Of a stretch of DNA of 64,000 nucleotides, positions 39,001-42,000 are shown piece after piece. The position numbers were made by a program. The stretch lies in the NCBI RefSeq assembly GCF_053078305.1, contig NZ_CP166879.1, one strand, 5' to 3'. Numbering within the stretch: position 1 is the first letter of the stretch; the number at the start of each line of letters is the position of its first letter.

Positions 39001-42000
39001 CCCAAGAATTCTCTATTGCATTGTTTTTTAATGAAAAAATATTATTTCAACAATATCTCACGATAAATAACATTAGGATTTTGTTATTTAAACACGAGTC
39101 CTTTGCACTTGCTTACTTTATCGATAAATCCTACTTTTTTAATGCGATCCAATCATTTTAAGGAGTTTAAAATGGATAAGAAGCAAGTAACGGATTTAAG
39201 GTCGGAACTACTCGATTCACGTTTTGGTGCGAAGTCTATTTCCACTATCGCAGAATCAAAACGTTTTCCGCTGCACGAAATGCGCGACGATGTCGCATTT
39301 CAGATTATCAATGACGAATTATATCTTGATGGCAACGCTCGTCAGAACCTGGCCACTTTCTGCCAGACCTGGGACGACGAAAATGTCCACAAGTTGATGG
39401 ATTTATCCATTAACAAAAACTGGATCGACAAAGAAGAATATCCGCAATCCGCAGCCATCGACCTGCGTTGCGTAAATATGGTTGCCGATCTGTGGCATGC
39501 GCCTGCGCCGAAAAATGGTCAGGCCGTTGGCACCAACACCATTGGTTCTTCCGAGGCCTGTATGCTCGGCGGGATGGCGATGAAATGGCGTTGGCGCAAG
39601 CGTATGGAAGCTGCAGGCAAACCAACGGATAAACCAAACCTGGTGTGCGGCCCGGTGCAAATCTGCTGGCATAAATTCGCCCGCTACTGGGATGTGGAGC
39701 TGCGTGAGATCCCTATGCGCCCCGGTCAGTTGTTTATGGATCCGAAACGCATGATTGAAGCCTGCGACGAAAATACCATCGGCGTGGTGCCGACTTTCGG
39801 CGTGACCTACACCGGTAACTATGAGTTCCCGCAACCGCTGCACGATGCGCTGGATAAATTCCAGGCCGACACCGGTATCGACATCGACATGCACATCGAC
39901 GCCGCCAGTGGTGGCTTCCTGGCACCGTTCGTCGCCCCGGATATCGTCTGGGACTTCCGCCTGCCACGTGTGAAATCGATCAGTGCTTCAGGCCATAAAT
40001 TCGGTCTGGCTCCGCTGGGCTGCGGCTGGGTTATCTGGCGTGACGAAGAAGCGCTGCCGCAGGAACTGGTGTTCAACGTTGACTACCTGGGGGGTCAGAT
40101 TGGTACTTTCGCCATCAACTTCTCCCGCCCGGCGGGTCAGGTAATTGCACAGTACTATGAATTCCTGCGCCTCGGTCGTGAAGGCTACACCAAAGTACAG
40201 AACGCCTCTTACCAGGTTGCCGCTTATCTGGCGGATGAAATCGCCAAACTGGGGCCGTATGAGTTCATCTGTACCGGTCGCCCGGACGAAGGCATTCCGG
40301 CGGTTTGCTTCAAACTCAAAGATGGTGAAGATCCGGGATACACCCTGTACGACCTCTCTGAACGTCTGCGTCTGCGCGGCTGGCAGGTTCCGGCCTTCAC
40401 TCTCGGCGGTGAAGCCACCGACATCGTGGTGATGCGCATTATGTGTCGTCGCGGCTTCGAAATGGACTTTGCTGAACTGTTGCTGGAAGACTACAAAGCC
40501 TCCCTGAAATATCTCAGCGATCACCCGAAACTGCAGGGTATTGCCCAACAGAACAGCTTTAAACATACCTGATAACGTTTAACGGTAACGGTGTCCCGAA
40601 ACGAACCCGTTTCGGGACAATTTCCAAAGTCTGTTCACTGGCATTAGCAACGGAAAATATTGTTCTGAATACGCTTCAGAACAAAACAGGTGCGGTTCCG
40701 ACAGGAATACCGTTTTAGGGGGATAATATGGCTACATCAGTACAGACAGGTAAAGCTAAGCAGCTCACATTACTCGGCTTTTTTGCCATAACGGCATCGA
40801 TGGTAATGGCTGTTTATGAATACCCTACCTTCGCAACATCGGGCTTTTCATTAGTCTTCTTCCTGCTATTAGGCGGGATTTTATGGTTTATTCCCGTGGG
40901 ACTTTGTGCTGCGGAAATGGCCACCGTCGACGGCTGGGAAGAAGGTGGTGTCTTCGCCTGGGTATCAAATACTCTGGGGCCGAGATGGGGATTTGCAGCG
41001 ATCTCATTTGGCTATCTGCAAATCGCCATTGGTTTTATTCCGATGCTCTATTTCGTGTTAGGGGCACTCTCCTACATCCTGAAATGGCCAGCGCTGAATG
41101 AAGACCCCATTACCAAAACTATTGCAGCACTCATCATTCTTTGGGCGCTGGCATTAACGCAGTTTGGTGGCACGAAATACACGGCGCGAATTGCTAAAGT
41201 TGGCTTCTTCGCCGGCATCCTGTTACCTGCATTTATTTTGATTGCATTAGCGGCTATTTATCTGCACTCCGGTGCCCCCGTTGCTATCGAAATGGATTCG
41301 AAGACCTTCTTCCCTGACTTCTCTAAAGTGGGCACCCTGGTAGTATTTGTTGCCTTCATTTTGAGTTATATGGGCGTAGAAGCATCCGCAACCCACGTCA
41401 ATGAAATGAGCAACCCAGGGCGCGACTATCCACTGGCTATGTTACTGCTGATGGTGGCGGCAATCTGCTTAAGCTCTGTTGGTGGTTTGTCTATTGCGAT
41501 GGTCATTCCGGGTAATGAAATCAACCTCTCCGCAGGGGTAATGCAAACCTTTACCGTTCTGATGTCTCATGTGGCACCGGAAATTGAGTGGACGGTTCGC
41601 GTGATCTCCGCACTGCTGTTGCTGGGTGTTCTGGCGGAAATCGCCTCCTGGATTGTTGGTCCTTCTCGCGGGATGTATGTCACAGCGCAGAAAAACCTGC
41701 TGCCAGCGGCATTCGCTAAAATGAACAAAAATGGCGTACCGGTAACGCTGGTCATTTCGCAGCTGGTGATTACTTCTATCGCGTTGATCATCCTCACCAA
41801 TACCGGTGGCGGTAACAACATGTCCTTCCTGATCGCACTGGCGCTGACGGTGGTGATTTATCTGTGTGCTTATTTCATGCTGTTTATTGGCTACATTGTG
41901 TTGGTTCTTAAACATCCTGACTTAAAACGCACATTTAATATCCCTGGTGGTAAAGGGGTGAAACTGGTCGTGGCAATTGTCGGTCTGCTGACTTCAATTA

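Follow-up and report, generated by a model that had tools for sequence, protein, structure and literature searches.

The closest described systems to the locus reported here are the gadA and gadBC promoters of Escherichia coli K-12, for whose expression the GAD box is required according to the literature. The 20-mer TTAGGATTTTGTTATTTAAA has been cited as the characterised GadE site (PMC4918353). In gadA it is placed 16 bp 5' of the -35 hexamer, and the boxes are conserved in gadB (PMC2887963). GadE alone does not bind the GAD box; the published binder is the GadE/RcsB heterodimer (Castanie-Cornet et al. 2010, PMC2887963), and the shifts that had earlier been obtained with GadE only were put down to RcsB contamination. 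The footprint of GadE together with RcsB on gadA extends from -50 to -76, and replacement of the conserved G in its left half by C (M1) abolishes both the GadE/RcsB complexes and the stimulation by GadE at this promoter (PMC2887963). At high level RcsB represses via an RcsB box, which abuts the -10 in gad promoters and carries a C/G difference between gadB and gadA (PMC2887963).

The size of the effects has been estimated by ChIP-exo and RNA-seq, in which activation of gadA/gadBC exceeds 50-fold for GadE and stays below 2-fold for GadX, and AKGKCTGWTWTTWWYMYVAK was given as the ChIP-exo GadX/W motif (PMC4918353). In the exponential phase the published route of activation leads from EvgA to YdeO and from YdeO to GadE. 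At the level of the transcript, the gadB leader has been taken to begin at -27, counted from the start codon, and the four GGA motifs of the leader and early coding region were reported as CsrA sites (PMC11210196).

Here we surveyed a stretch of 64,000 nucleotides of contig NZ_CP166879.1 (assembly GCF_053078305.1), which is called the window throughout, and analysed the regulatory region in front of its gadB gene. The 20-mer at 39073-39092 is almost certainly the canonical GAD box, that is, the activator site of the gadBC promoter bound by GadE-RcsB, and would be expected to act as such here. The coordinates of all features are collected in Table 1.

Table 1. Features of the gadB regulatory region and of the gadBC genes, with positions counted from the first letter of the window
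Feature	Position	Strand	Description and basis
Terminator-like hairpin	38817-38846	+	10-bp stem, 5-nt loop, AUUUU tail; directly 3' of pqqL
GadX/GadW-type motif AGGTCTGATTTTTACGTGAT	38925-38944	+	-220 to -201; matches 19/20 positions of AKGKCTGWTWTTWWYMYVAK; identical in MG1655
Hypervariable hexamer TCAACA	39046-39051	+	-99 to -94; directly 5' of the invariant block; promoter alignment
GAD box TTAGGATTTTGTTATTTAAA	39073-39092	+	GadE/RcsB activator site; -72 to -53, centre -62.5 from the transcription start
-35 hexamer TTGCTT	39109-39114	+	Sequence; 16 bp 3' of the GAD box
RcsB box CGATAAATCCTA	39122-39133	+	Repressive RcsB site by literature; adjoins/overlaps the -10; same as MG1655 gadB
-10 hexamer TACTTT	39132-39137	+	17-bp spacer from the -35
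Transcription start 39145 (+/-1) and 27-nt leader	39145-39171	+	Published leader length, primer names
Shine-Dalgarno AAGGAG	39160-39165	+	Within the gadB leader
gadB, glutamate decarboxylase B	39172-40572	+	466 aa, intact; translation, 100% aa identity to MG1655 GadB
gadC, glutamate:GABA antiporter	40728-42263	+	511 aa, intact; translation, 100% aa identity to MG1655 GadC

Genomic context of the gadBC locus

The window is a piece of E. coli chromosome which carries gadBC, the acid-resistance locus, behind a wild-type promoter. It is colinear with strain ETEC6335 at about 99% identity, and against MG1655 1.566-1.590 Mb it shows 98.6% identity over the 24 kb compared, in reverse orientation. The order of the genes is tam-lsr-(autotransporter)-hipBA-fimbrial operon-ydeP-safA-ydeO-ydeN-ydeM-yddA-yddB-pqqL and, after pqqL, gadB-gadC-digH-dosCP-ddpXABCDF-osmC-...-fdnIHG, the synteny pqqL-gadB-gadC-digH being the same as in MG1655 and ETEC6335. 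An earlier note on this DNA had placed a GAD box upstream of gadB, and the identity of that gene is confirmed by the ATG at 39172 and by the full-length product, which begins MDKKQV and is the same as MG1655 GadB at every residue.

The ORF of pqqL ends at 38810. The hairpin which follows it folds with -18.6 kcal/mol (z = -5.5; equally stable shuffles 0/200) and delimits the gadB regulatory region on its upstream side; a simple terminator scan did not pick it up. The Rfam search of the window returned no RNA family near the gadB locus, and its sole match at gathering level was a SECIS_3 element of 84 bits at 63012-63070 on the minus strand, where the colinear ETEC6335 annotates the selenoprotein gene fdnG.

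Some other features of the window were recorded along with these. In the ydeQRST-type operon the fimbrial usher gene is broken into two ORFs, 20364-21107 and 21216-22364; against the usher of ETEC6335, which is intact at 2652 bp, it lacks about 651 bp, and its 3' piece of 382 aa has the length of the annotated truncated ydeT in K-12. Between lsrK and hipB an intact ORF of 1806 aa (10495-15915) corresponds to the gene annotated as 'ECSE_1600 family autotransporter' in ETEC6335.

Sequence and placement of the GAD box

The earlier note had reported the box as exact, and both the sequence and the coordinates that it gave are right: the 20-mer is present on the plus strand without mismatch. It is also unique in the 64 kb, giving a single match even when up to three mismatches are allowed, and the second-closest site in the window has five mismatches. 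Comparison with MG1655, which the note had proposed, gave an identical 20-mer in both PgadA and PgadB. The conserved G of TTAGGA, which is the M1 position, is present in the exact match, and the box ends 79 bp upstream of the intact gadB. Thus the 20-mer has the sequence and the position of a GAD box, with a decarboxylase gene downstream of it and with conservation amid diverged flanks, and nothing was found that contradicts this identity.

The placement in the promoter agrees with the published one. The gap from the box to the -35 is 16 bp, and the interval from -72 to -53 falls inside the footprint from -50 to -76. The numbering has the support of two independent papers, through the 27-nt leader (PMC11210196) and through the primer names gadB-173 and gadB+77 (PMC3050690), which put +1 at 39145/39146. 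From 39052 (-93) to the ATG the window and MG1655 PgadB agree at every position, in a stretch that takes in the RcsB box, the -10 and the leader bound by CsrA; four GGA motifs lie between -27 and +50 of gadB, the first one within the leader. Every cis component of the gadBC arrangement is therefore present and identical to K-12, and the -10 hexamer TACTTT is unchanged in every Escherichia gadA/gadB promoter collected.

The published gadB promoter escaped a scan for the sigma-70 consensus over 38700-39300. The hexamers of gadB are too weak for such a scan, so that the miss is not evidence against the promoter, and weak hexamers fit a promoter which depends on an activator.

The ChIP-exo GadE 15-mer motif TTARGAWWWWAAATA was tried as a detector and dropped. 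At up to two mismatches it gave 8 scattered matches (3.8 expected) and missed the real box, and it describes the gadB GAD box poorly.

Conservation in Escherichia coli and in other species

The 362-bp gadB intergenic region was found in 5404 of the 5426 complete E. coli genomes. The exact GAD box with a gadB-type flank was then counted by megablast with a 36-mer query (the box and 8 bp on either side), for which any exact 28-mer seed necessarily contains the whole box; since the seed must span the box, the resulting 5384 of 5426 genomes are a lower bound on the carriers of the exact box (at least 99.2%). Among the variants of the 50-mer box region that were taken from the whole range of identities (O157:H7, AVS0283, ESM2.2, P31_YH1 and SCU-308), every one retains the 20-mer and varies in the flanks only.

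The gadB promoter region is absent from about 22 E. coli genomes, a few others have two gadB-type copies, and six of the roughly 5400 matches to the promoter are on records labelled plasmid.

The exact 20-mer was also searched across species, with one genome for each of 100,044 species (298 Gb). It occurs in two copies each in two E. coli lineages, one of them divergent, and in Escherichia sp. E1V33, and in one copy each in E. albertii and E. whittamii, and each of these Escherichia matches has a gadA- or gadB-type start about 80 bp downstream of it. In the flanks of this set the invariant columns are 0/40 upstream and 1/16 in the downstream spacer; as exact identity to the box was the condition for entering the set, the invariance of the box itself is by construction and the divergence of the flanks alone is informative.

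The same search returned the 20-mer in three unrelated metagenome-assembled genomes (Lentisphaeria, Bacteroidales). In tblastn with GadB on the DNA fetched for these three contigs, no glutamate decarboxylase gene was found, and the matches were rejected as chance on this ground and because the local sequence is coding-like.

Chance matches to this 20-mer thus exist in 298 Gb, and one may ask whether the one in the window is likewise an AT-rich coincidence without function. In the window about 2e-7 exact occurrences are expected on both strands under an iid model, none of 100 dinucleotide-preserving shuffles contained a match at three mismatches or fewer, the site stands exactly where published work puts it with respect to gadB, and it is conserved. 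We give a coincidence no credence at all.

A second explanation holds that the box is the same in gadA and gadB, and from strain to strain, through gene conversion between the two paralogous loci (concerted evolution) and not through selection on a binding site. One strain speaks for it. In SCU-308 (NZ_CP053281.1 2486581-2487215, downstream of pqqL) the gadB locus is of gadA type from directly 3' of the box into the gene start, and this switch is a gadA-to-gadB gene conversion which has its upstream edge at the box, so that conversion between the loci does take place and can stop there. However, conversion homogenises contiguous tracts and so fails to explain an invariant island of 20 bp amid the diverged flanks counted above, which in several species differ between promoters of gadA type and of gadB type. 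The exact box is moreover present in E. albertii and E. whittamii, for which one locus each was returned, and the published mutagenesis shows that the box is functional. Conversion as the source of the identity is hence barely credible, and we retain selection on a GAD box bound by GadE-RcsB.

Upstream haplotype and GadX/GadW-type motif

The sequence is fixed from -93 downstream to the ATG, and directly above this block the hexamer at -99 to -94 varies among lineages: it is TCAACA in the window, CGCGTA in MG1655, CACGCA in O157 and AVS0283, and CTCGTA in P31_YH1. With the hexamer included, 14 substitutions separate the window from MG1655 between -244 and -94 (38901-39051). Of 5431 E. coli records, no more than 5 match the 183-bp promoter haplotype of the window at 99% or above, and this rare upstream haplotype is the only mildly unusual feature near the box. 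If the hexamer contacts GadX/GadW or H-NS, its lineage-specific alleles could adjust how strongly gadBC is expressed without any change in the invariant GadE/RcsB input, an idea that we regard as speculative and rather unlikely.

Further upstream, the GadX/GadW-type motif of Table 1 is the sole match in the window with one mismatch. At up to three mismatches the 20-mer gives 4 matches against 3.5 expected, which is the chance level, and the support for this motif is positional only.

The motif bears on another reading of the box, in which the 20-mer is conserved mainly as a binding region of the AraC-type regulators GadX/GadW and GadE/RcsB is secondary. Besides the motif in the same intergenic region, this reading can draw on the literature, in which both proteins bind gadA and gadB promoter fragments. 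Tramonti and co-workers reportedly described in 2006 a promoter-proximal GadX/W site that overlaps the GAD box, and we counted this in its favour. The box has, however, no resemblance to the GadX/W motif. The effect sizes on gadA/gadBC quoted at the outset lie with GadE and not with GadX, and at gadA a point mutation in the box is enough to remove the GadE/RcsB complexes together with the stimulation by GadE. We consider a primary role of GadX/GadW at the box very improbable, and the 20-mer is treated below as the GadE-RcsB site.

Regulators and proposed mechanism

The earlier note had called the 20-mer the GadE target and had concluded from it that the regulatory input of gadBC is intact. The first statement holds as far as the 20-mer is the published GadE site, and fails where it implies that GadE is the only binder, as the published binder is the GadE-RcsB heterodimer. 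The second statement stands on the cis side, where the sequence from 39052 to the ATG is that of K-12 and both gadB and gadC are intact; it is limited to this half because the trans genes gadE and rcsB lie outside the window. In MG1655 gadE is at 3.658 Mb, far from gadBC. In tblastn of the window no homologue of GadE was found, and the queries GadX and GadW returned only the paralogue YdeO.

The genes ydeP, safA and ydeO (24732-28292) are intact with 96.9-99.5% aa identity to K-12, and two of them, safA and ydeO, act above gadE. Since YdeO activates gadE and ydeO is intact, a part of the cascade which feeds the GAD box is encoded in the window itself, 11 kb upstream.

With these components the following mechanism may be proposed. 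A heterodimer of GadE and RcsB, which are LuxR/FixJ-type proteins, would bind the box centred at -62.5 and would recruit RNA polymerase to the weak promoter made up of TTGCTT, a 17-bp spacer and TACTTT. The placement at -62.5 would suggest a contact of class-I type with RNA polymerase. By this means the GadB decarboxylase and the GadC antiporter would be switched on in acid and in the stationary phase. We infer that the site is functional in the strain from which the window comes.

Significance of the data

The GAD box of the window is known from earlier work and stands here in its canonical state, as it does in about 99% of E. coli genomes. As the exact box is the default state of the species, its presence is uninformative on the particulars of this strain, and being present in essentially every E. 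coli genome it cannot separate acid-resistant from acid-sensitive strains. Differences in acid resistance among strains more likely reside in gadE, rcsB, rpoS or upstream regulators. The observation has little significance past annotation. Its useful part is the correction that the box is a target of the GadE-RcsB heterodimer and that an intact box stands for cis competence only.

Comparison with known systems

The locus is closest to the GAD box of K-12 gadBC (Castanie-Cornet & Foster 2001; Ma et al. 2003; Castanie-Cornet et al. 2010), with which it shares the same 20-mer, the same distances from the box to the -35, -10, transcription start and ATG, and the same downstream genes. Against the gadBC promoter of MG1655, the box and the core are without change, and the 14 substitutions are all upstream of -93.

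The gadA promoter of MG1655 shares the 20-mer, the 16-bp gap, the TTGCTT -35 and the -10, and its RcsB box is near-identical, the sole difference being C in the window for G at the left end. The 16-bp spacer and the sequences flanking the box on either side set it apart from the gadB promoter of the window. The genes behind the two boxes differ as well, being gadB in an operon with gadC in the window and gadA-gadX in MG1655.

A wider likeness is found with the RcsAB box and the other sites of RcsB heterodimers, in which RcsB is paired with RcsA, BglJ, MatA or GadE. The left half of the GAD box, TTAGGA, resembles an RcsB half-site, and like the RcsAB-type sites the box is bound by a heterodimer that contains RcsB (PMC2887963). 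Unlike the other RcsB heterodimer sites, the GAD box has GadE as the partner of RcsB, and its right half-site is peculiar to the gad genes.
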